Assembly (NCBI GenBank): GCA_038911065.1
Contig: JBCKBR010000003.1
Coordinates: forward strand, 2,547-66,546
Reading direction: 5' to 3'
From: Gaiellales bacterium
Lineage (GTDB): Bacteria; Actinomycetota; Thermoleophilia; Gaiellales; F1-60-MAGs149
DNA length: 64,000 bases
This document shows, one piece after another, positions 2,258 to 56,079 of the stretch; the first letter of the stretch is position 1, and each line of letters begins with the position of its first letter. Below the pieces are notes generated by a model. That model ran no database searches. It was not told where the DNA came from and saw only the letters and a program-made list of their open reading frames with translations. The position numbers and the translations under genes are program-made.

Positions 2258-2261
2258 GTTT

Positions 2262-2322
2262 TGTGATGGGGTTATGACTGGACAAAGGGGTCTGACCCCT
2301 TTGTCCAGTCATAACCCCATCA
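2262..2322. repeat. Perfect palindrome (30-nt arms, 1-nt centre) between convergent genes; probable bidirectional terminator or repeat element (family D)
   Basis: GTGATGGGGTTATGACTGGACAAAGGGGTC-T-GACCCCTTTGTCCAGTCATAACCCCATCAC read directly. The arms are exact reverse complements. It lies between stop 2257 (+) and stop 2344 (-). Confidence 0.85.
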
Positions 2323-2343
2323 CGAACCACCGCCACCGGCAAA

Positions 2344-3747
2344 CTAGTCCGCCAGTGGGTGCGTCATGTCGGCGGGGACGACCCACTCCGCGTACTGCTC
2401 GGGCGTCACCAACTCGAGTGCGGTGGCCGCTTCGATCAGCGTGGTGCCGTCCTGATGCGCCTTCTTTGCGATCTTGGCGGAATTCTCGTAGCCAATGTGC
2501 GTGTTGAGTGCCGTGACCAGCATCAGCGACGCCTCGAGATTACGCGTGATCGTCTCCATGTTCGGCTCGATGCCGATCGCGCAGCGCTTGGTGAAGGAGC
2601 GCGACGCCTCGGCCATCAGCTCGGCCGATTCGATCACGTTGTGCACCATGATCGGCTTGTAGACGTTCAGCTGATAGTCACCTTGGGTGCCGGCGAAGGC
2701 GACGGCCGCGTCGAAGCCGAAGACTTGGACGCAGACCATGGTCAGCGCCTCACACTGCGTCGGGTTGACCTTGCCCGGCATAATCGACGAGCCCGGCTCG
2801 TTCTCGGGGATCGAGATCTCGCCGATGCCGGCGCGGGGGCCCGAGGCTAGGCGACGGACATCATTCGCCATTTTCATCAGCGCGCCTGCGAGGGTGCGGA
2901 GTGCCGCACTGACGTTGACGAGCGCGTCGTGTGATGCGAGTGCGGCGAACTTGTTCTCGGCCGAGACGAACGCGTAGCCCGTTTCTTCGGCCATGTACTT
3001 GGCGGCGAGGTCACCAAACTTTGGATGCGCGTTGAGGCCGGTGCCGACAGCAGTGCCGCCGATCGCGAGCTCGAGCATGCCCTCGATCGAGTGTTTGACG
3101 TTGGCGAGGGCGGCGTCGATCTGCGCAACCCATGCCGAGATCTCCTGTCCGAGCGTGATCGGTGTCGCGTCCTGGAGGTGCGTGCGTCCGATCTTGACGA
3201 CGTCGGCGTAGGCCTTTGCCTTCTGGTCGAGACAGTCGCGCAGTTCGCTGATGGCGGGCACGAGCACCTTGTCGAGGACTTCGACCGCAGCGATGTGCAT
3301 TGCCGTCGGGAACGTATCGTTCGACGACTGGCCGCGGTTGACGTGGTCATTCGGATGGACGGGCGTCTTCGAACCGAGCACGCCGCCAGCCATCTCGATC
3401 GCGCGGTTCGAAATCACCTCATTGATGTTCATGTTCGACTGCGTGCCAGAACCGGTCTGGAAAATCACGAGCGGAAACTCGTCATCCCATTTGCCGCTAA
3501 TCACTTCGTCAGCGGCCTTGATGATCAGGTCGGCGACGTCGTCGGGGATCTGGCCGAGGTCGCGATTGGCGCGGGCAGCGGATTTCTTGAGCACGCCAAG
3601 CGCGCGGATCACGGGGCGATCCCATTGGTACTGCCCGACGCCGATCGGGAAGTTTTCGATCGAGCGCTCGGTCTGCGCTCCCCAATAGCGGTCAGCGGGG
3701 ACCTTGACCTCACCCATGCTGTCCGTCTCGATTCGATACTCCGTCAT
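2344..3747 (-). CDS. fumC: Fumarate hydratase, class II
   Basis: 467 aa. Fumarate lyase signature [16 protein letters not shown]. The N-terminus [29 protein letters not shown] is typical of FumC. Confidence 0.95.
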
Positions 3748-3800: not shown

Positions 3801-3889
3801 ATTTCGTGATGGGGGGCGGATGCCACAACCGCGCGGTTGTGGGGTCCGCCCATCCGCGCGGTTGTGGCATCCGCCCCCCACCACGAAAT
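3801..3889. repeat. Family A palindromic intergenic element, compact copy
   Basis: 36-nt arms (3801-3836 and 3854-3889) are complementary at 35 of 36 positions around a 17-nt centre. Core GGCGGATGCCACAACCGCGCGGTTGTGG. Located 3' of moeA and 5' of fumC. Confidence 0.85.
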
Positions 3890-3892
3890 CGT

Positions 3893-5086
3893 TTAGGCCA
3901 GTGGTACGGCGTCGACCGTCGTGCCGGCAAGCAGCTCGCCGTCGCCCATGGGGATCAGCGCGAGTGCATTGGCGCGGGCTGCGCGCGACAGCTGGTGCGA
4001 TGCGCCAGCTCCGAGCTGTTCGAGTTGGCCGTCGCGTAGCAGCATCGGAATTGCGCGTAGTCGTGCGGGCAGTTGGGCGATCGGTGTTGCCAGTTGAGCA
4101 CGGATCGTGACGGGTTCGGGCGTGTCGCCGGTCATCGCCCGCACGGCGGGTGCAAGCAGGAGGTGGAGGCCGACGAGGCACGACAGCGGGTTGCCAGGCA
4201 GGCCTGCGACGAGCGCGCCATTGGGGGCAACGCCGCACCAGACGGGCTGGCCGGGTTGCGTTGCAATGCGCCAGAACAGTTCGGTCACATTGAGGGCGTG
4301 CAGAGCCGGCTTGACATAGTCGCGTGGCCCGACCGAGACTCCACCCGTCGAGACGACGAGGTCGGTGCTACCGATTGCCGCCGCAAACGCATCGTGGGTC
4401 GCGTCAGCGGTATCCGCCACGCTGGCGATCGTGACGATCTCGCAGCCCAGCGCGGCGAGTGTCGCCGCGACGAGGACCGAGTTCGACTCGTGGATCTGGC
4501 CGCGCTGCAGTACCGTACCCGGGGGCACGAGCTCATCGCCCGTGGAGAGCACGGCGACGCGTGGTCGCCGGATACAGACGGCCTCGGTCAGTCCGAGCCC
4601 CGCAATCGCCGAGACGGCAAGCGGTGATAGTCGCGTGCCGGGCAGTAACACGCGATCGCCTTTCTGCACGTCGGCTCCGCGTGGGCGAACGTAATCGCCC
4701 GTCCTGACGACGCCCGAGGCAGTGACGGTTCCGTCGGCCTCGACGACCTGTTCGATCGGGATCACGGCATCCGCACCATCCGGCAAAACGCCACCTGTGG
4801 CGATCGCGGCAGCTGTTGCGGGTGCCAACGGCGCAGGGTTATCGCCCGCCAGGATCTGGGCGCTAATCGTCCACGGACCCGTCGATCGTGCAGCGACCGC
4901 ATAACCATCCATCGCCGAGTTGGCGTGCGCGGGGAGGTCGTGTGGAGCGGTGATTGTTGCCCCAAGGGTTCGCCCAGCAAGTTCGCTGAGTGGGACAGAT
5001 TCTGTTTCTAGGAGCCGCACAGCGCCGATCACAAGCGCTCGTGCCTCGTCGATGGGGACGCGTTTGTGGGGAAGGTCAGTGGTCAT
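3893..5086 (-). CDS. moeA: Molybdopterin molybdenumtransferase
   Basis: 397 aa. N-terminal MoeA motif HANSAMDGYAV. MoCF-binding domain block LVVSTGGVSVGPRDYV. Confidence 0.9.
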   Translation of the reverse strand: MTTDLPHKRVPIDEARALVIGAVRLLETESVPLSELAGRTLGATITAPHDLPAHANSAMDGYAVAARSTGPWTISAQILAGDNPAPLAPATAAAIATGGVLPDGADAVIPIEQVVEADGTVTASGVVRTGDYVRPRGADVQKGDRVLLPGTRLSPLAVSAIAGLGLTEAVCIRRPRVAVLSTGDELVPPGTVLQRGQIHESNSVLVAATLAALGCEIVTIASVADTADATHDAFAAAIGSTDLVVSTGGVSVGPRDYVKPALHALNVTELFWRIATQPGQPVWCGVAPNGALVAGLPGNPLSCLVGLHLLLAPAVRAMTGDTPEPVTIRAQLATPIAQLPARLRAIPMLLRDGQLEQLGAGASHQLSRAARANALALIPMGDGELLAGTTVDAVPLA

Positions 5087-11244: not shown

Positions 11245-12119
11245 TGCCACGCTTTACCGCACGTGAACGCCGCGAGGCGTATCAGCGCGAGTATTCCTTC
11301 CAGAAGCGACACGGTGAGTCGTTCTTCCCGCACGGCATTTTCCACGACACGGTCATGAGCCTGATCGTCGTTGCCCTGATCATCGGCATAACCGTTCTCT
11401 GGTATGCACAGTTTGCTCCGATTCCTGCCGACGCCACAGCCGAGCGGCTGGGTGGCATTCTCGGACCCGCCTACGAAGCTAAGGCCGATCCGGGTGTGCT
11501 CGGCTACCACCCGCGTCCCGACTGGTACTTCTTCTTCCTCTTCGAGTTGTTGCGTATCTTCAAGACACCAGCACTCCTGATCGTCGGCTCGGTCATCATC
11601 CCGACGATCTGGATGGTGCTGCTGATCGGCTGGCCGTTTATTGATCGCAATCCTGATCGGCGACTCTCGCGCCGCCCGATCGCGCTTGCGCTGGGTGTGA
11701 CGGTGCCGATTGTGCTCTTGGCGTTGACGTTCTATGGCTCGAAGGCGCCGGGCGTCGCTGGGTCGGTGTCGGCAGAACCCGGAGCGGCAGCGTTCGCAGC
11801 CGCGTCTTGCGCGACCTGTCACACGTTGGCGAATGCGGGTACGGCCGGCAACGTGGGTCCCGTGCTCGATGACATCAAGCCCGACTATGCCACGGCGCTG
11901 ACGTTCATTACCGACGGCAAGGGGGGAATGCCGGCCTTCAAGGGCACCTATACGGAAGACGAGATTTCGTGCCTAGCCGGCTACGTCGCAACATGGTCAG
12001 GTGCCACGGGCACGACGCCGGGTCCGGGCGCGGATTCTGCAAAAGACACGTATCCAGCATCGTGTAAGAAGGCTGGCGGCTTGTATGCCGGCACGGCTTC
12101 GGCTGCTGCCGGTCCCTGA
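11244..12119 (+). CDS. qcrC: bc-complex subunit IV-like domain fused to a c-type cytochrome
   Basis: 291 aa. Qo-site motif variant PDWYFFFLFELLR in the membrane part. C-terminal haem-c site CATCH with distal GGMPAF. Confidence 0.85.
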   Translation: MPRFTARERREAYQREYSFQKRHGESFFPHGIFHDTVMSLIVVALIIGITVLWYAQFAPIPADATAERLGGILGPAYEAKADPGVLGYHPRPDWYFFFLFELLRIFKTPALLIVGSVIIPTIWMVLLIGWPFIDRNPDRRLSRRPIALALGVTVPIVLLALTFYGSKAPGVAGSVSAEPGAAAFAAASCATCHTLANAGTAGNVGPVLDDIKPDYATALTFITDGKGGMPAFKGTYTEDEISCLAGYVATWSGATGTTPGPGADSAKDTYPASCKKAGGLYAGTASAAAGP

Positions 12120-12848: not shown

Positions 12849-13600
12849 GCACTGACAACCTCCCAGTACCGTACGGCGTCGAAGAAGGCACGTTGTCGCC
12901 CGAGCGGGTCCAGGCCATGTTCGATCGGATAGCGCGCCCGTACGACGCGATGAATCGCGTCATGACGGTGGGCCTCGACGTCCGCTGGCGCAGGCTGGCG
13001 GCCGATGCCACAGGAGTTGGTGCGGGCGCGAGCGTCCTCGACTGTTGCTGTGGAACGGCAGATCTCACGCTCGAGCTCGCCAAGCGCGTCGGCCCGAGCG
13101 GCGAGGTGATCGGCCTCGATTTTGCCGAGCGCATGCTTGATCGTGGGCGCGCCAAGATTGCTAAGAAGGGTGCAGACCAGGCCACACTTCTGCATGGCGA
13201 CGCCCTCGATCTACCGTTTGAGGACGATCGTTTCGCCGCGGCAACCGTGGCCTTTGGCATCCGCAATGTGGCTGACCTTGGGCTTGGAATCCGCGAGTTG
13301 GTACGCGTCGTCCGCCCGGGTGGCAAGGTCGTTTGTCTGGAGATCACGACACCTGAGTCCGGGGTTGCAGCGAAGTTTCATCACCTCTGGTTCGACCGTC
13401 TCGTGCCGAGCATTGGTCGACTCGTGGATAAGCAGGACTCGGCCTACGTGTATCTGCCCGCCTCCGTTCGACGCTTTCCTGGACCGACAACGCTGGCGCA
13501 CGCGATGTACGAGAACGGGCTCAGCGATGTGCGCTTCCGCAAACTCGGTGGTGGCATTGTCGCGCTCCACGTCGGCACAGTGGCTCGAGGTGACGCATGA
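12845..13600 (+). CDS. ubiE: Demethylmenaquinone/ubiquinone C-methyltransferase
   Basis: UbiE/MenG blocks VQAMFDRIARPYDAMNRVMT, the SAM motif VLDCCCGTADL, and FGIRNV. GTG 12845 overlaps the ubiX stop (GTGA); the ORF opens at 12800. Confidence 0.88.
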   Translation: MSTDNLPVPYGVEEGTLSPERVQAMFDRIARPYDAMNRVMTVGLDVRWRRLAADATGVGAGASVLDCCCGTADLTLELAKRVGPSGEVIGLDFAERMLDRGRAKIAKKGADQATLLHGDALDLPFEDDRFAAATVAFGIRNVADLGLGIRELVRVVRPGGKVVCLEITTPESGVAAKFHHLWFDRLVPSIGRLVDKQDSAYVYLPASVRRFPGPTTLAHAMYENGLSDVRFRKLGGGIVALHVGTVARGDA

Positions 13601-14568
13601 GCACGATCAGCTATGCCGATCTCCTCGTCCTGCCCGGCATTCGCGATTACCTCGATCGCGTCGAAGCACGCCTGGCCGACGATGTTGCCTGGGTGGGTGG
13701 TTCGACGTCAGCGACTGCTGCCGCGACTCTTTCGGCGGGTGGCAAGCGCCTGCGGCCCTTGCTCGTGCTGCTGTCGTCCCCCACTGCGAGCCAGTCACGG
13801 ACGAACCTGGTGCGTGTCGGCAGCGCAGTCGAACTCGTCCACATGGCGACGCTCGTACACGACGATATACTCGACCGCGCCTCCTTACGTCGTGGACGGC
13901 CGACCGTTTGGGCCCAGCACGGCGAACGCATTGCCGGTGCTACCGGGGACGTCTTGTTTGCGCGCGCCTTTGCCGTTCTAGCCGAAGCCAATGATATTGC
14001 GAGCCTCGCATTGCTGGCACAAGCTACGCTCGCTCTGTCCGAAGGCGAGGCGTTACAGATGCTGCAGACGCGGGAGCCGGCGACGACGCCCGCACAGTAC
14101 TTCGAGCGCTGCACCCTCAAAACGGGTCGCCTCTTTGCTGCCGCCTGCGCTCTCGGTGGACGGTTCGGTGGCCTTGGCGATGACGACGCGGACGCGCTGG
14201 CCGACTATGGACGTTTGCTCGGGCTGGCCTTCCAAGTTGCCGATGACATCCTCGACTGTGAGGGCTCGGCAGATGCCACTGGCAAGCTGCTCGGCACCGA
14301 TCTGCTTGGCGGCACAGCCACACTTCCGTTGCTCTTTGCCGCGCGCGACGATGCCATGGTGGCCGAGGCGCTGCGTCACGCACCCATGCCCGCTGAGGTC
14401 GCCCCACTACTCGCACGCATCATCGGCACGGGAGCACTCGACGAGGCGCGCGAGGCGGCATACGAACTCGTGCGGGCAGCAGAGGATGCCCTCGATCGCA
14501 TCCACGGTGACCTCGATACCACGCCGCTCCGGATGGTCGTCCGAAGCGTCGTCGACCGCGATACGTAA
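13597..14568 (+). CDS. Long-chain polyprenyl diphosphate synthase (hepta/octaprenyl type)
   Basis: 323 aa. First Asp-rich motif LVHDDILDRASLRRGRPT and second motif FQVADDILD. ATGA overlap with ubiE. Confidence 0.9.
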   Translation: MSTISYADLLVLPGIRDYLDRVEARLADDVAWVGGSTSATAAATLSAGGKRLRPLLVLLSSPTASQSRTNLVRVGSAVELVHMATLVHDDILDRASLRRGRPTVWAQHGERIAGATGDVLFARAFAVLAEANDIASLALLAQATLALSEGEALQMLQTREPATTPAQYFERCTLKTGRLFAAACALGGRFGGLGDDDADALADYGRLLGLAFQVADDILDCEGSADATGKLLGTDLLGGTATLPLLFAARDDAMVAEALRHAPMPAEVAPLLARIIGTGALDEAREAAYELVRAAEDALDRIHGDLDTTPLRMVVRSVVDRDT

Positions 14569-17588: not shown

Positions 17589-17789
17589 GAGCAAAGGGGT
17601 CTGGCTCGGTTTCGTGAGGGGGGCGGACCCCACAACCGCGGGGTTTTGATGTCCGCCCCCCATACTCAACCACGCTCGACAGACGGTTTTAGGGGGCGGA
17701 CATCACAACCCCGCGGTTGTGGCGTCCGCCCAACCCCGCGGATGTGGCGTCCGCCCCCCCTCACGAAACCGAACCAGACCCCTTTGCTC
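17589..17789. repeat. Family A palindromic element, largest nested copy
   Basis: Outer arms GAGCAAAGGGGTCTGGCTCGGTTTCGTGAGGGGGGCGGA and its complement at the right end differ by one substitution and one G-run length difference. Inside are family A hairpin units and the conserved loop CAACCACGCTCGACAGACGGTTT. Confidence 0.85.
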
Positions 17790-23632: not shown

Positions 23633-24583
23633 GTGGATACCAAGCAACTTACCGCCCTCGTCGCTGTTGTGGATCGCTCCAGCTTCTCGCAGGCCGCCGA
23701 ACAACTTGGCGTGACACAACCCGCAGTGTCGCTGGCAATTCGCTCGCTCGAGAAACGCCTCGGCTGCCAGTTGATTGATCGTTCTGGTCGTGTCGTAGAG
23801 CCGACCGAGGCCGGGCAGGTGGCGTATCGCCACGCGCAGCGCGTGCTCGCTGCAGAGCGCGATCTTTTTCGAAGTCTCGAGGATGAGGGGGACGACCTCT
23901 CGGGCCATCTGATCGTTGGCGCTTCGACGGGTCCAGGCGAACGTGTTTTGCCTGCACTGCTCGGTGCCTTTCATCGCGAGAATCCAGAAGTGGTCGTGTC
24001 GCTGCGCGTTGATGACACGGAGACAATCGTGGATCGCGTACTTGATCGCCAGTTAGAGTTCGGCATTGTTGGCGCCGAGCGGACACATCGCTCGCTCGTT
24101 TTCGAGCCGTTTCTTCGTGACGAAGTCGTGCTCGTCGTGCCGGTCGATCACCCGTTCGCGGGGAAACAGATCACGATGGATGATCTACTCCGCGAACCCC
24201 TCGTCGTCCAGCAGGAGGGCGCCGGGGTCCGCACCGTCATCGAACGCGAACTACGTGCCCAAGGGGTGCGTATCCGCGATCTCAACATTGTCGCCGAACT
24301 CGGATTGCAAGAATCGGCGAAATCGGCTGTTGAGGCGGGGCTGGGGATCACGTTTCTCTCGAGGCTTGCTGTGGAGCGCGAACTTGATCAGGGATGGCTC
24401 GCATCCGCGACGGTCGAGGGTCTCGCGGCTGGGCGCCTGTTCTACTCCGTCCGCAGTGCCGCCCGGACACCGAGCCGGTTGGTGGCATCGTTTGTTGCCT
24501 TCTCGCGACTCTCGCTGGGCGAGCGTGCGGTCTTTCCGGATGAGGTGCGCGAGCGCCCGATCCGCGGCGGTCGTGTCGGCTAG
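23633..24583 (+). CDS. LysR-family transcriptional regulator
   Basis: 316 aa. HTH LTALVAVVDRSSFSQAAEQLGVTQPAVSLAIRSLEKRLG and a LysR substrate-binding domain. GTG start lies 3 nt after the dehydratase stop. Confidence 0.9.
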   Translation: MDTKQLTALVAVVDRSSFSQAAEQLGVTQPAVSLAIRSLEKRLGCQLIDRSGRVVEPTEAGQVAYRHAQRVLAAERDLFRSLEDEGDDLSGHLIVGASTGPGERVLPALLGAFHRENPEVVVSLRVDDTETIVDRVLDRQLEFGIVGAERTHRSLVFEPFLRDEVVLVVPVDHPFAGKQITMDDLLREPLVVQQEGAGVRTVIERELRAQGVRIRDLNIVAELGLQESAKSAVEAGLGITFLSRLAVERELDQGWLASATVEGLAAGRLFYSVRSAARTPSRLVASFVAFSRLSLGERAVFPDEVRERPIRGGRVG

Positions 24584-24590
24584 CAAGGAC

Positions 24591-24720
24591 TTCGTGATGG
24601 GGGGCGGACGCCACAACCCCGCGGATGTGAGGTCCGCCCCCACGCACAACCACGCTCGGCAGACGGTTTGGGGGCGGATCTCACATCCGCGGGGTTGTGG
24701 CGTCCGCCCCCCATCACGAA
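24591..24720. repeat. Family A palindromic element, archetype copy
   Basis: 51-nt arms (24591-24641 and 24670-24720) are complementary at 50 of 51 positions. The 28-nt loop contains CAACCACGCTCGGCAGACGGTTT. Confidence 0.9.
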
Positions 24721-24771
24721 ATCCTCGCCAGTCGCGCCTCACGCTTTCGCCTGCCGCTACCCTCTCCAGCA

Positions 24772-26757
24772 ATGCCTGAAGTCGTCGCCTTCGATGCTGA
24801 TGTCATCGGTCGTCATCGGACGGGTGATGAGACGGTGGCCACTGGGTTGCTGACTGCGCTGGCAGCGCGCGATGACCTGCCGTTCTCGGTGATCGCGTAT
24901 GTGCGTGACCCATCACTGGTTTCGGAGGCGATTACTGCCTCCGGCGTGGTCCATCCGGTCGCTGTCCGGGTGGGCTCGAACTACCGCCGTGTGGCGGTTA
25001 GCCTGCCGGCGCGCCTCCGGGCCGACCGTCCTGCGCTCTACCACGGCAACTATGTGCTGCCGCCGGGTCTTAGCTGTCCCGGCGTGGTCACAGTCCACGA
25101 CTCGTCGTATCACTTCGCACCCGAGTTGATGCCGCGTGCCGACGCACTCGCTTTTGGCCGCTTCGTACCCTGGTCGATTCGTCGTGCCGCACGCGTCGTG
25201 ACTGTTTCGGAGCACGCGCGACGCGACGTTCTCGCATCGGTGGCTGGCCTCGATCCCACCCACGTCGTGACGATTCCGAATGGCGTCTCGAGTGCGTATG
25301 CGCCCGACCCGACTGCGGCAGAACGCGTCCGTGCGCGTCACGGCATCGAGCCCGGCTACGTGCTCTTTATCGGCGCATTACAACCACGTAAGAACCTGTT
25401 GCGTCTGCTCGAGGCGTACGCGCGTGTCCGCGATGGACGCGTCGACATGCCACCGCTCGTGCTCGTTGGCAACGCGAAGCAGGACGAGCACGATCTCGCC
25501 GAGCACATTGCGACGCTTGGTCTCTCCCGCGTCGTGCACCGGATTGGCTACGTGGCGGGGGAGGAGGCACTGCGCGACCTCTATTGCGCGGCCAGCGTCT
25601 TCGCTTTTCCATCGCTCTACGAAGGCTTCGGTTTGCCCGTAGCCGAAGCAATGGCCTGCGGTACACCGGTATTGACGGCCGACACGACAGCGCTGCCGGA
25701 GGTCGCGGGCGGAGCCGCAGTGCTCGTCGATCCACTCTCCATCAGCGCTATTGCGGACGGGTTGGCGCGGCTCCTCGACGATCGGGCACTCCGCGAGCGG
25801 TGCAGCACAGCCGGCATTACCCGCGCGGGAGAACTGACGTGGAAGGGGGCAGCTGATCGCCTCGTCGAGGTCTGGCAGGACGTCATCGCCGAGTCGCCGC
25901 AGCCGCAGCGCAGCGTGCGTCGCGTGGCAGCGGGCCCGCCGGCAGCGGTCGTTGCGGCGCTCACCTCGACCGGGCAGGCGGACGACCTCCCAGCTGCGAT
26001 CGCCGGTCTGCGGCAGCAGGGGCTCGCTGACCGACTGACGATCGTGGTCGTGGCGAATCGTCCCGGCGATGGCACGGTCGAGTTAGTCGAGGCGAGTTAT
26101 CCCGACTGCATCCTCGTGCAGCAGCAGGAGACACGCTCGTACGCGGAAAACCAAGCAGTCGCGTTTGCGGCGGCACCCGGCGACTACCTCGCGATCGTCA
26201 ACCCCGACGCGATCGCTCAACTCGATTGCCTGTCCACGCTCGTGCGCTTCATGGAGCAGCACCCACGCTGCGGGCTGGTTGCGCCAACACTGCGCAATCT
26301 CGACGGCTCGTACCAGGAGGCCGCGCGCCGCTTTCCTGAGCCACTCGGCTCGATTTTGCGCCGCACACCACTACGGCGGGTGTTGTCCCCCGCACGCTTC
26401 GCCGCCGACCACTACCTCGGCGAGCCCACCGCCCCGCGCATGATCGACTGGTCATTGGGTGCGTTTTTGTTGATCCGGCGCGCCGCGTGGGATGACGTAG
26501 GCGGCTTCGACGAGGCCTTCGCGCCACTCTATGTCGAGGAGATCGAGCTGCAGTGGCGTCTCTGGCAGCGTGGTTGGGAAATCTGGCAGGAGCCGGCTGC
26601 CGAAGTCGTCCACGCGCATCAGGCGGCCTCCGATGCGGCCTTTATTGACAAGCGAACGATCTGGCATTTGCGTAATGTCGGGCGCTTCATTTGGCGCCAC
26701 CCAACGGTACTCAGAGGCCAGAGTCCTGGTCTCGCACCATCACAGCAGGGCGACTAG
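24772..26757 (+). CDS. Bifunctional glycosyltransferase (N-terminal GT4 domain fused to C-terminal GT2 domain)
   Basis: GT4 part: FIGALQPRKN, FAFPSLYEGFGLPVAEAMACGTPV. GT2 part: IVVVANRPGDGT...AENQAVAFAAAPGDYLAIVNPD...EEIELQWR. Start taken at ATG 24772; the ORF opens at 24697 inside the repeat. Confidence 0.85.
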   Translation: MPEVVAFDADVIGRHRTGDETVATGLLTALAARDDLPFSVIAYVRDPSLVSEAITASGVVHPVAVRVGSNYRRVAVSLPARLRADRPALYHGNYVLPPGLSCPGVVTVHDSSYHFAPELMPRADALAFGRFVPWSIRRAARVVTVSEHARRDVLASVAGLDPTHVVTIPNGVSSAYAPDPTAAERVRARHGIEPGYVLFIGALQPRKNLLRLLEAYARVRDGRVDMPPLVLVGNAKQDEHDLAEHIATLGLSRVVHRIGYVAGEEALRDLYCAASVFAFPSLYEGFGLPVAEAMACGTPVLTADTTALPEVAGGAAVLVDPLSISAIADGLARLLDDRALRERCSTAGITRAGELTWKGAADRLVEVWQDVIAESPQPQRSVRRVAAGPPAAVVAALTSTGQADDLPAAIAGLRQQGLADRLTIVVVANRPGDGTVELVEASYPDCILVQQQETRSYAENQAVAFAAAPGDYLAIVNPDAIAQLDCLSTLVRFMEQHPRCGLVAPTLRNLDGSYQEAARRFPEPLGSILRRTPLRRVLSPARFAADHYLGEPTAPRMIDWSLGAFLLIRRAAWDDVGGFDEAFAPLYVEEIELQWRLWQRGWEIWQEPAAEVVHAHQAASDAAFIDKRTIWHLRNVGRFIWRHPTVLRGQSPGLAPSQQGD

Positions 26758-40954: not shown

Positions 40955-41068
40955 GGGCGGACCCCACATCCGCGGGGTTGTGATGTCCGCCCCCCGACAC
41001 CACCTTTACAACGGTTGTGGCCTCCGTGGGGGGCGGACATCACAACCCCGCGGATGTGGCGTCCGCCC
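40955..41068. repeat. Family A palindromic element (copy with a different loop)
   Basis: 41-nt arms (40955-40995 and 41028-41068) are complementary at 40 of 41 positions. 32-nt loop GACACCACCTTTACAACGGTTGTGGCCTCCGT. Confidence 0.85.
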
Positions 41069-55110: not shown

Positions 55111-56031
55111 ATGCCAGGCGCGATGATCGCGGTGCTCTGGGGTGCCTCGTTTGCCGTGGGCATCTGCTGGCAGTGGCGCTCGCCGCAGACTGCCGCACTG
55201 TGGAACAAGCGGATCTTCTACTTCTACTTTCACTTGCTGGCTCCGGTTGTTGTGCTCTTTGCCTACACGGTGGTGCCTGCCAATCGTGCGACGCTGATGG
55301 GGCTTGCTGCGGTGATTGTTGCGTCGTACGCCGTCCTTGGTATTGGCTTGCTCTATGCCCGCAAGGCTGGTCGCACGCGTGGTGAGCAGGGCGTGCTCGC
55401 CCTCGGCAGTGGCTTTACCAACACGGTCACGCTTGGCTATCCCGTGATCAGCGCGGTGTTTGGTCCCGCCGGGCTGGCACTGCAAGTGCTGTTTGGGCAG
55501 TTTATGTACCTGATCCCAATCGTCTCGATCTCGACCACGATTGCCGCGCACTTTGGTAATGGTTCGAGGCCGCGAACCTGGCTCGGCATCTTGCGCCAGA
55601 TCATCAATGTGCCGCTGATTTTCGCGGCGATTGCCATCACCATTCGGGCCCTCGGGTTCGACCTCGCTCCGTACGTGACGGAGCCGTCAAATTGGGTCGT
55701 CTTTGCGATGGGCCCGATCGGGTTCCTCGAGCTTGGTCTGGCACTTCCGCTCAACCGGCCCTCGCACGATTTTGGGGATCTGTGGCGCGCGGCCGGACCG
55801 ATTCTGATTCGTCTCTCGATCGCGCCGGCCATGCTCTATCTGGTCGATCTGGCGATGGGTGCTGACGTCCCGCAGGTCTACTACCTCGCGATCATGATGC
55901 CCGCCGCATTCCACACGCTGATTCTCGCCCGCGTCTATGACCTGCCCGGGCAGATGATGCGGCTGATTGTCGTGATGTCGACGGTGATCATGATTGCCGG
56001 CATCGTGGTCGGTCTTGCGTTCTACGGGTAG
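55111..56031 (+). CDS. AEC-family (auxin efflux carrier-like) membrane transporter
   Basis: 306 aa with about 10 TM helices. GSGFTNTVTLGYPV resembles the AEC motif. Family-level call only. Confidence 0.6.
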   Translation: MPGAMIAVLWGASFAVGICWQWRSPQTAALWNKRIFYFYFHLLAPVVVLFAYTVVPANRATLMGLAAVIVASYAVLGIGLLYARKAGRTRGEQGVLALGSGFTNTVTLGYPVISAVFGPAGLALQVLFGQFMYLIPIVSISTTIAAHFGNGSRPRTWLGILRQIINVPLIFAAIAITIRALGFDLAPYVTEPSNWVVFAMGPIGFLELGLALPLNRPSHDFGDLWRAAGPILIRLSIAPAMLYLVDLAMGADVPQVYYLAIMMPAAFHTLILARVYDLPGQMMRLIVVMSTVIMIAGIVVGLAFYG

Positions 56032-56060
56032 GACGCCACAACCGCGCGGATGTGGCGTCC
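56031..56060. repeat. Family A solo hairpin unit, probable terminator between convergent genes
   Basis: GGACGCCACAACCGCGCGGATGTGGCGTCC is palindromic except for one A/A position. It starts at the last base of the AEC stop codon. Confidence 0.75.
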
Positions 56061-56079
56061 GCCTTCCTGCGGATCAGCG

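Follow-up and report, generated by a model that had tools for sequence, protein, structure and literature searches.

Introduction

A REPIN is defined as an inverted pair of repetitive extragenic palindromic (REP) sequences of about 71 bp that forms a hairpin, carries compensatory changes and occurs in proximity to the gene of a REP-associated tyrosine transposase (RAYT) (PMC3116915). REPINs and their Group 2 and Group 3 RAYTs have been described in Pseudomonas and Enterobacteria (PMC3116915, PMC5581495), and Actinomycetota are not among the phyla that PMC3733652 lists as REP-bearing. Here we analyze a composite palindrome at positions 24577–24734 (site S3) of a 64,000-nt stretch of DNA, hereafter the window, from a Gaiellales bacterium (Actinomycetota; Thermoleophilia; assembly GCA_038911065.1, contig JBCKBR010000003.1, positions 2,547 to 66,546). 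An initial annotation, made without database searches, had likened this palindrome either to REPs and bacterial interspersed mosaic elements (BIMEs) or to miniature inverted-repeat transposable elements (MITEs). We conclude that it is probably a REPIN of an uncultured Thermoleophilia-like actinobacterial lineage, whose cognate RAYT gene occupies one conserved locus outside the window.

The BIMEs of Escherichia coli, in which REPs are found as parts of larger mosaics, are known to bind integration host factor or gyrase. The E. coli REPtron is organized around inverted REP pairs and GTAG-guided cleavage (Ton-Hoang 2012 and Messing 2012, as cited in PMC6006769). A further comparison is offered by transposases associated with terminal inverted repeats (TIRYT/TIRtron) and the TnpA-Y1 proteins of subclass 2.1 (PMC3733652, PMC6006769); Quentin et al. 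2018 reported no REP-like sequences next to subclass 2.1 genes (PMC6006769). The REPIN literature has yet to explain how the symmetry of a REPIN is restored (PMC3116915).

Anatomy of the Element

The two arms of the palindrome were first noticed as positions 24591–24641 and 24670–24720, which lie on either side of a 28-nt loop and are reverse complements of each other at 50 of 51 positions. Direct reading and repeat finding both bear this out, and the latter extends the inverted repeat to arms of 66 nt (24577–24642 and 24669–24734) that are 92% complementary. Each arm is itself an imperfect hairpin, as the initial annotation had proposed, the 19-nt half-arms being 84% and 79% complementary (3–4 mismatches). 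The 42-nt core of the arm has a chance expectation of 0.00 occurrences (100 shuffles). The region folds into one long hairpin both as single-stranded DNA (minimum free energy −84.1 kcal/mol, z −16.4) and as RNA (−142.4 kcal/mol, z −18.0).

The repeated module is a 36-nt imperfect palindrome, GGCGGAC-NNN-CACA[A/T]CC-SCGS-GG[A/T]TGTG-NNN-GTCCGCC, which we call the REP unit. It comes in two mirror forms, an A-form (CACAACC..GGATGTG) with an A.A mismatch and a T-form (CACATCC..GGTTGTG) with a T.T mismatch, which have a 2×2 internal mismatch in common; a perfectly paired variant also exists. Across 255 units from the loci fetched as described below, the two variable positions read AT in 85, TT in 82, AA in 79 and TA in 2 cases.

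Within weakly paired outer flanks, S3 is made of an E arm, an A-form unit, loop 1, a T-form unit and a second E arm, all given here on the forward strand. The left arm of this end module E, cTTCGTGATGGGG (24590–24602), matches the E consensus TTTCGTGATGGGG, whose counterpart on the right is CCCCATCACGAAA. REP unit 1 (24603–24638) is of the A-form, CACAACC-CCGC-GGATGTG, with its A.A mismatch and the 2×2 internal mismatch. The spacer (24639–24672) consists of CCC, the 28-nt loop 1 (ACGCACAACCACGCTCGGCAGACGGTTT) and GGG, and is followed by REP unit 2 (24673–24708), of the T-form, CACATCC-GCGG-GGTTGTG, and by the right arm of E, CCCCATCACGAAA (24709–24721). Loop 1, with its core CAACCACGCTCGRCAGACGGTTT, is conserved in 49 doublets and is the sole asymmetric part of the element. 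The E consensus TTTCGTGATGGGG is common to sites S1, S2 and S3 of the window, to window positions 2259–2327 and to 28 distinct doublets in the fetched loci.

The absence of a U-tract, remarked upon at the outset, is confirmed by direct reading and by a terminator scan that gives no site at the element. Because no T/U tract directly follows the GC-rich hairpin and the scan finds none, S3 is not an intrinsic terminator. Rfam returned no match in the whole window at the gathering threshold, in agreement with the initial annotation, which did not recognize the sequence as a described family; at a permissive threshold, the element gave only miRNA-precursor hairpins far below threshold, on both strands.

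An Extragenic Family in Related Genomes

We scanned a degenerate pattern of the unit against 185,579 species representatives and, separately, against metagenomes. Among the species representatives, it was present in only nine loci, all of them in metagenome-assembled genomes (MAGs) that bear the label Actinomycetota, Thermoleophilia or Gaiellales, apart from one labelled Bifidobacterium breve. The metagenomes yielded at least 120 loci, often with several on one long contig. The fumarase encoded in the window is identical in two NCBI MAGs. As to the MAG labelled B. breve (loci L005–L008, CAMAWJ01 contigs, 64–66% GC), its label is probably wrong; one of the contigs, L005, has as its orthologues (75–79% identity) both the window and contigs of Actinomycetota/Thermoleophilia MAGs.

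The fetched loci contain 255 exact-pattern units, and the start-to-start spacing of these units peaks at 70–78 nt. Of 66 non-redundant doublets, 54 have a second unit that is reverse complementary to the first without any exception, whereas inside a single unit only 13–14 of 16 positions pair. The search for further copies beyond the window, suggested with the first description, thus reveals an extragenic family with hundreds of copies in related MAGs and metagenome contigs, 158 of 164 sites in the fetched loci lying outside long open reading frames (ORFs). Convergent gene pairs enclose 42 of the 115 classifiable sites, as against 143 of the 680 adjacent gene pairs in the same loci; these gene-context counts come from a crude caller based on ORFs and third-position GC content (GC3), which miscalled at least site S1 of the window, and we use only their broad trend. 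The initial annotation had stressed that all copies abut a gene 3′ end. This is true, but it is a weak argument because most intergenic regions do so, and the real signal is the enrichment between convergent genes.

The census also decides the fate of the simplest explanation for the locus, namely that S3 arose by chance or through a single, recent inverted duplication at this place. The identity of the arms at 50 of 51 positions would fit such an event, but no chance matches are expected and the same architecture recurs in dozens of loci from independent assemblies. The census refutes this explanation, to which we give practically no credence.

Long-Range Versus Local Pairing

From the near-perfect arms, the initial annotation had drawn the alternative that either the long-range complementarity is maintained or the duplication is recent. 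An alignment of 49 distinct doublets with loop 1, S3 included (1764 cells; 500 shuffles), settles this at the level of the family in favor of the former. Arm-to-arm pairing holds in 99.7% of cells, and 9 of 36 arm-to-arm pairs have changed on both sides (111 cells), with a covariation of 0.174 compared with 0.051 in shuffled alignments, none of the 500 reaching the observed value. A model of two local hairpins pairs 87.8% of cells and is no better than shuffled, since 489 of the 500 shuffles score as high; the mismatches within the arms are conserved across doublets. Long-range complementarity is therefore a property of the whole family and not of one recent duplication.

Covariation across the stem would also be expected if the element were a functional RNA or a transcription signal, that is, a bidirectional terminator devoid of a U-tract or a hairpin that stabilizes or processes mRNA, selected on its RNA pairing. 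The RNA fold is very stable (−142 kcal/mol, z −18), sites are enriched between convergent genes, and REPs have known effects on termination and on the stability of mRNA (PMC3733652). Several observations nevertheless speak against selection on RNA. Pairing is almost purely Watson–Crick on both strands: arm to arm, the cells that are not Watson–Crick comprise four G.U and six non-pairs out of 1764, which matches the neutral expectation, and G.U is no more tolerated than mismatches. With respect to transcription, the asymmetric loop 1 is found either way round (10:4, not significant), the T-tract is absent, and orthologous sites in close relatives are empty or have a different interior. An RNA role would, moreover, leave the transposase linkage described below unexplained, although it may exist as a secondary effect. 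All in all, we regard it as quite improbable as the basis of the family, and the lack of G.U tolerance, together with the two orientations of the loop, suggests that the palindrome is kept up as DNA rather than selected as RNA.

A RAYT Gene Flanked by the Same Unit

A search for a RAYT or another cognate gene had been recommended together with the first description. We combined tblastn (E ≤ 10), using as query a RAYT-like consensus that served as a lead only, with a scan for HUH and tyrosine motifs, over the window and 1.1 Mb of fetched, element-bearing loci. In the latter, both approaches found the same single Y1-type ORF, L079:10688–11407, which encodes 239 amino acids. A RAYT-like gene flanked by the same unit is present in the related contigs L079, L132 and L134–L136.

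The L079 protein contains the motifs HYHLL and RYIPRNPVKAGL and passes the cut-off of Pfam Y1_Tnp (PF01797; 26.5 bits for a cut-off of 23). Its sole NCBIfam match is the REP-associated tyrosine transposase family (REP_Tyr_transpos, NF047646; E 3.4e-17, 62.7 bits), and its best sequence match in the PDB is the E. coli TnpA-REP (4ER8). In 25 homologues, HYHLL, Y121, N125, P126 and V127 are invariant. An AlphaFold2 (AF2) model (mean predicted local distance difference test [pLDDT] 91.5) has as its top Foldseek match 4er8_A (E 9.3e-7, target TM score 0.66), followed by ISDra2 and IS608 at about 2e-4. The model predicts an extra C-terminal three-helix bundle, with helices at 199–236, within about 90 additional C-terminal residues. 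This tail is weakly matched by Pfam HTH_23 (E 0.0019, 18.4 bits, below the cut-off of 24.6); among the homologues, HTH_23 is precomputed on several and Bac_DnaA_C is carried by more distant ones (PF13384 or PF08299).

In L079, four units lie upstream and four downstream of the RAYT gene, all in one orientation and differing in sequence by no more than one or two bases from the right arm of S3 (REP unit 2). The same flanking unit, from which REP unit 2 of S3 differs by a single base, surrounds the gene in the NCBI MAG loci L132, with three units on one side and one on the other (at a contig end), and L134–L136, with three to four per side, again in a single orientation. The sequences that precede the RAYT-adjacent units read ..CCAAGG, ..CAGGG, ..GAAGG or ..GTAGGG. 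At L079:11397–11432, a REP unit overlaps the end of the RAYT gene and takes in its final four codons and its stop.

The genomic context of the gene is constant: it always lies between an ORF of 283–306 amino acids and pyrR–pyrB, in the order ORF-RAYT-pyrR-pyrB-pyrC-carA, across genomes whose RAYTs are 62–92% identical. In the Thermoleophilia MAG locus L133, where the RAYT is 62% identical and the synteny is the same, the gene is flanked by a different but related hairpin, GAGGACATGACAAACCCCGGTTTGTCATGTCCTC. RAYTs and their REPs have been described as combining a fixed syntenic locus with joint divergence of enzyme and hairpin (PMC5581495, PMC6006769), as seen here. The distinct hairpin of L133, of the form GAGGACATGACAAACC-CCGG-GGTTTGTCATGTCCTC, lies on the RAYT flanks at 2750–2920 and 3670–3710. 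At L010:2494–2570, a similar hairpin, GGACATGACAAG..CTTGTCATGTCC, adjoins a unit of the GGCGGA type; the two hairpin types can thus co-occur, since L010 has both side by side.

Copies and Nested Layers in the Window

The window contains eight full 36-nt units, starting at 3815, 17622, 17695, 24603, 24673, 40956, 41032 and 56028, and two half units (3851–3875 and 17731–17755), distributed over five intergenic sites. The related sites listed in the initial annotation (3801–3889, 17589–17789, 40955–41068 and 56031–56060) are all real, as judged by blastn and by this census. All five sites lie between long ORFs and, according to ORFs and Pfam, each adjoins at least one gene 3′ end.

Site S1 (3801–3893), between the MoeA stop and the fumarase start, consists of E arms around the full unit 3815–3850 and the half unit 3851–3875. 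Site S2 (17589–17789), located after the CofH/MqnC stop, has an outer B-like stem (GAGCAAAGGGGTCTGG / CCAGACCCCTTTGCTC), E arms, the units 17622–17657 and 17695–17730 around loop 1, and the half unit 17731–17755. S3 has the LysR stop upstream and the start of a glycosyltransferase gene downstream. Site S4 (40955–41068), between convergent genes for a major facilitator superfamily (MFS) protein and a thioredoxin-tetratricopeptide repeat (TPR) protein, is a doublet of the opposite arrangement, with a T-form unit (40956–40991), loop 2 and an A-form unit (41032–41067), and is devoid of E arms. Site S5 (56028–56063) is a solo A-form unit between two convergent gene ends.

At S1 and S2, the 3′ half of a full unit is repeated once more in tandem, as a 25-nt copy (period 25), and this layer of unit plus half unit is found symmetrically around many doublets of the fetched loci (e.g., L019, L041, L060 and L097). 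A weak unit-like stretch inside a long ORF of the window, GCCGACGCCACAGCCGAGCGGCTGGGTGGCAT (11426–11455), is either due to chance or a degenerate intragenic copy.

Complementarity can continue beyond the units, by up to 55 nt, and mostly consists of further layers of the same modules. An earlier idea, that the outer flanks are copy-specific covarying or duplicated target DNA, was dropped for this reason. Counting distinct sequences, the E module encloses a doublet in 28 cases, another E in 10, a single unit in 9, a palindrome of family B in 4 and nothing more than a short loop in 3. On its own, E forms a minimal 35-nt hairpin, GATTTCGTGATGGGG-TCWGA/CCTGA-CCCCATCACGAAATC, as seen at L048:4776–4806, L085:~494, L098:~2307 and L140:113–150. 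Family B is a perfect palindrome of about 31–37 nt, (TGA)CTGGACAAAGGGGTC[T/A]GACCCCTTTGTCCAG(TCA), with many recurrences, sometimes as pairs about 70 nt apart (L024:3320; L027:8072/8586/8652; L034:826/896; L035:7527/7600; L082:2331/2400; window 2281–2305; and others). Judged by its sequence, its layout of A-tract, GC stem and T-tract looks like a bidirectional terminator, and it may represent a second repeat family of the same genomes. In the window, E arms (TTTTGTGATGGGG / CCCCATCACGAA) surround the family B palindrome CTGGACAAAGGGGTCTGACCCCTTTGTCCAG at 2259–2327, between the 3′ ends of ORF 557–2257 and of fumarase; the linkers of this element are mirror-symmetric (TTATGA / TCATAA). The converse scenario, insertion into pre-existing terminator hairpins with E nested in B, is unsupported beyond S2 of the window, a strict pattern giving no case.

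Site Occupancy Among Relatives

Comparison of orthologous intergenic sites, another check suggested at the outset, shows that occupancy differs between close relatives at S1, at S3 and at the fumarase 3′ site. L004 (~78% identity) lacks S3, and only 3 nt separate its LysR stop from the start of the glycosyltransferase gene. Aligned with L004:1093–1114, window positions 24583–24773 amount to a gap of about 190 nt, which corresponds in the window lineage to the element and some 50 nt of unique sequence, and the insertion may have split a co-transcribed LysR–glycosyltransferase pair. In L071, a 96% relative, S3 is rearranged and only the right E arm and the right flank are retained. S2 is also occupied in relatives of 75–79% identity, with a different spacer.

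Two sites form allelic series among relatives of 95–98% identity. S1 exists in four states with constant E arms: a bare E hairpin (L140, L143 and L145), a unit fragment (L001), the 1.5 units of the window and a full doublet (L123). The fumarase 3′ site likewise has four states: a lone E arm, E around B (window 2259–2327), E around another E plus a unit (L002), and a full doublet (L001). The lone right arm of E, without any palindrome, is found in L140–L142, L144 and L146, whose fumarase is 98% identical and which show a 24-nt gap. Because the bases of the bare loop are absent from the filled alleles, bare-E and filled alleles are not related by simple insertion or deletion. Elsewhere, some contig pairs with 100%-identical flanks differ by the loss of a hairpin tip between short direct repeats.

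Two further observations concern the surroundings of S2. At L005:4080–4140, and also in L004 and L059 (~78% identity), the CofH/MqnC ORF runs on for some 14 codons within the first unit and ends at a TGA. On its reverse strand, at about 13540–13640 to the right of S2, the 96% relative L071 has two features that the window lacks, namely an additional remnant hairpin of sequence GTGTGGCTAACTGAACAAGGG-AGCCAGA-CCCCTTCGTTCAGTTAGCTACAC and a duplication of the segment AGCCAGACCCCTTCGTT.

These comparisons bear on the part of the initial annotation that proposed a MITE-type element. A classical MITE would be a deletion derivative of a DDE-type insertion sequence with TTTCGTGATGGGG / CCCCATCACGAAA as terminal inverted repeats (TIRs), and it is true that conserved terminal inverted repeats bound most copies and that a size of about 130–170 nt is typical of MITEs. 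However, we looked for target-site duplications at S1, S3 and the fumarase 3′ site and saw none. The linker variation of the E-around-B copy in the window is mirror-symmetric (TTATGA/TCATAA) instead of forming a direct repeat, and E arms also occur solo, as the 35-nt hairpin, and nested in each other. In the 1.1 Mb of element-bearing DNA, our Y1 query matched the RAYT-like ORF alone; DDE transposases were not searched for. A MITE origin thus seems very improbable, whereas the likening to REPs and BIMEs stands. The absence of target-site duplication is what is expected for Y1/HUH transposition.

The allelic series also suggest another scenario, in which it is mainly host recombination that spreads and diversifies the elements, by ectopic gene conversion or template switching via E arms and G4/C4 junctions and by palindrome-driven deletion, the RAYT having no current role. 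In its favor, one or both E arms are constant at S1 and at the fumarase 3′ site while the interior varies among relatives of 95–98% identity; interiors appear interchangeable (doublet, single unit, E, B or nothing); tips are lost between short direct repeats; and the loop CCTGA of bare E is gone from the filled alleles, so that simple insertion fails to explain the series. Yet this scenario explains neither the arrays of the unit on both sides of a conserved Y1 transposase gene nor the joint change of hairpin and enzyme in L133, and new sites such as S3, absent in L004, still require an insertion process. We consider it unlikely, even if it is the most serious competitor of the REPIN interpretation.

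Comparison with Known Systems

The family described here has the features by which REPINs are recognized, that is, an extragenic multicopy unit, its inverted pairing, compensatory changes, a RAYT gene flanked by the same REP, and differing occupancy of sites. Like the REPINs of Pseudomonas and Enterobacteria, it is an inverted pair of imperfect REPs (70–78 nt here vs. 71 bp in SBW25) that forms a long hairpin with compensatory changes, and its cognate Y1 transposase, flanked by the same REP, resides at one syntenic locus across diverged relatives. It differs from them in its unrelated sequence, in the lack of a 5′ GT[AG]G tag and in its host, an actinobacterium and not a proteobacterium. Further differences are the RAYT, with its ~90 additional C-terminal residues and predicted three-helix, HTH-like (helix-turn-helix) tail, the gene-flanking REPs, which are all direct, and the many doublets wrapped in further palindromic layers. 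With E. coli BIMEs it shares a mosaic construction from a few modules, units in alternating orientation with conserved linkers, and conserved hairpin mismatches, and the E. coli TnpA-REP 4ER8 is the best match of the L079 transposase in both sequence and fold. Unlike the canonical GTAG-tagged REPs of TnpA-Y1 subclasses 2.2/2.4/2.5/2.7/2.8, the units show no 5′ GT[AG]G at the hairpin foot.

Other traits may recall the proteins of TIRYT systems and subclass 2.1, which are RAYT-like, longer than canonical RAYTs and endowed with a C-terminal extension of the HTH type; the lack of a GTAG tag is another likeness. GGGGWSAS, the motif of TIRYT repeats, is matched by the core of the E module, GGGGTCAG, but the match is short and may be due to chance. 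Here, in contrast to TIRYT genes, the transposase gene is flanked by arrays of self-complementary direct hairpins and not by one pair of long TIRs, and, unlike what was reported for subclass 2.1, the L079-type protein has an abundant REP/REPIN population; the likeness is one of architecture, and the protein is a candidate member of the subclass. As in IS200/IS605 elements (IS608, ISDra2), the fold is HUH/Y1, target duplications are absent at the sites examined, and imperfect hairpins of a single orientation lie subterminally to either side of the gene, but here the gene is fixed at one syntenic locus and it is the hairpin, not the gene, that is multicopy.

Several points weigh against the REPIN interpretation. 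Neither tblastn (E ≤ 10) nor the HUH/Tyr motif scan detected a RAYT-like ORF in the window, and the link between RAYT and window is drawn from MAGs of the same accession series and from metagenome contigs of the sample series that yielded 95–96% window orthologues. The L079 protein, at 62.7 bits, misses the NF047646 equivalog cut-off of 80 bits and, on this sequence score, is best described as a divergent relative rather than an equivalog. Its residues aligned to W94/Q95 of the E. coli protein are F/G, and no 5′ GT[AG]G tag was found abutting the stem GGCGGA of the RAYT-adjacent units; the GTAG seen at S5 arises only from an upstream stop codon. Around the RAYT gene, every unit points the same way, in contrast to the E. 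coli REPtron with its inverted pairs. Copying by itself could produce perfectly symmetrical arms, and the covariation counts overstate the number of events, as many fetched copies may be orthologous across sister samples. The tip-loss variants may reflect either real palindrome instability or collapse during short-read assembly, and no transposition was observed directly.

Proposed Mechanism and Implications

By analogy with IS200/IS605 elements and with the biochemistry of E. coli TnpA-REP, the RAYT would recognize the local hairpin, with its mismatches, where DNA is single-stranded, such as at replication forks, and would cut and rejoin beside it without target duplications, thereby dispersing, exchanging or rearranging units. 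The perfect mirror symmetry of every layer would then result from copying or repair at the DNA level, one arm being regenerated from the other, or from conversion between copies, and not from selection on an RNA. A likely side effect is that transcripts crossing S3 would form a perfect duplex of about 65 bp, which may be blocking or be cleaved and would uncouple the LysR and glycosyltransferase genes.

The family is new but its kind is known, i.e., a REPIN/BIME family with a cognate RAYT, and it is not a new class of element. A bolder proposal, which we make tentatively and hold to be doubtful rather than likely, is that a Y1 transposase of the subclass 2.1/TIRYT type, HTH-bearing and GTAG-independent, is here linked for the first time to a REPIN population, and this in Actinomycetota, and that the elements of this population behave as "socket and cassette," with E fixed at the site and the interior swapped among a bare loop, a REP unit, a doublet, another E and a second palindrome, each layer remaining mirror-symmetric. 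If true, insertions would have to be aimed at the apices of hairpins, or one arm would have to be rebuilt from the other as copies are made.

Whatever the fate of that proposal, the data place, with the probability stated above for the REPIN interpretation, a REP/REPIN–RAYT system in an uncultured, freshwater-associated, Thermoleophilia-like actinobacterial lineage, and link an abundant hairpin family to a RAYT relative that has no GTAG-recognition features and a predicted HTH-like tail. The elements account for breaks in contigs and for variants of length in MAGs of the lineage, and their fast-evolving intergenic sites could serve for strain typing. The allelic series, which runs from a bare E hairpin to a full doublet without target duplication, provides natural material on how REPINs are built and lost.

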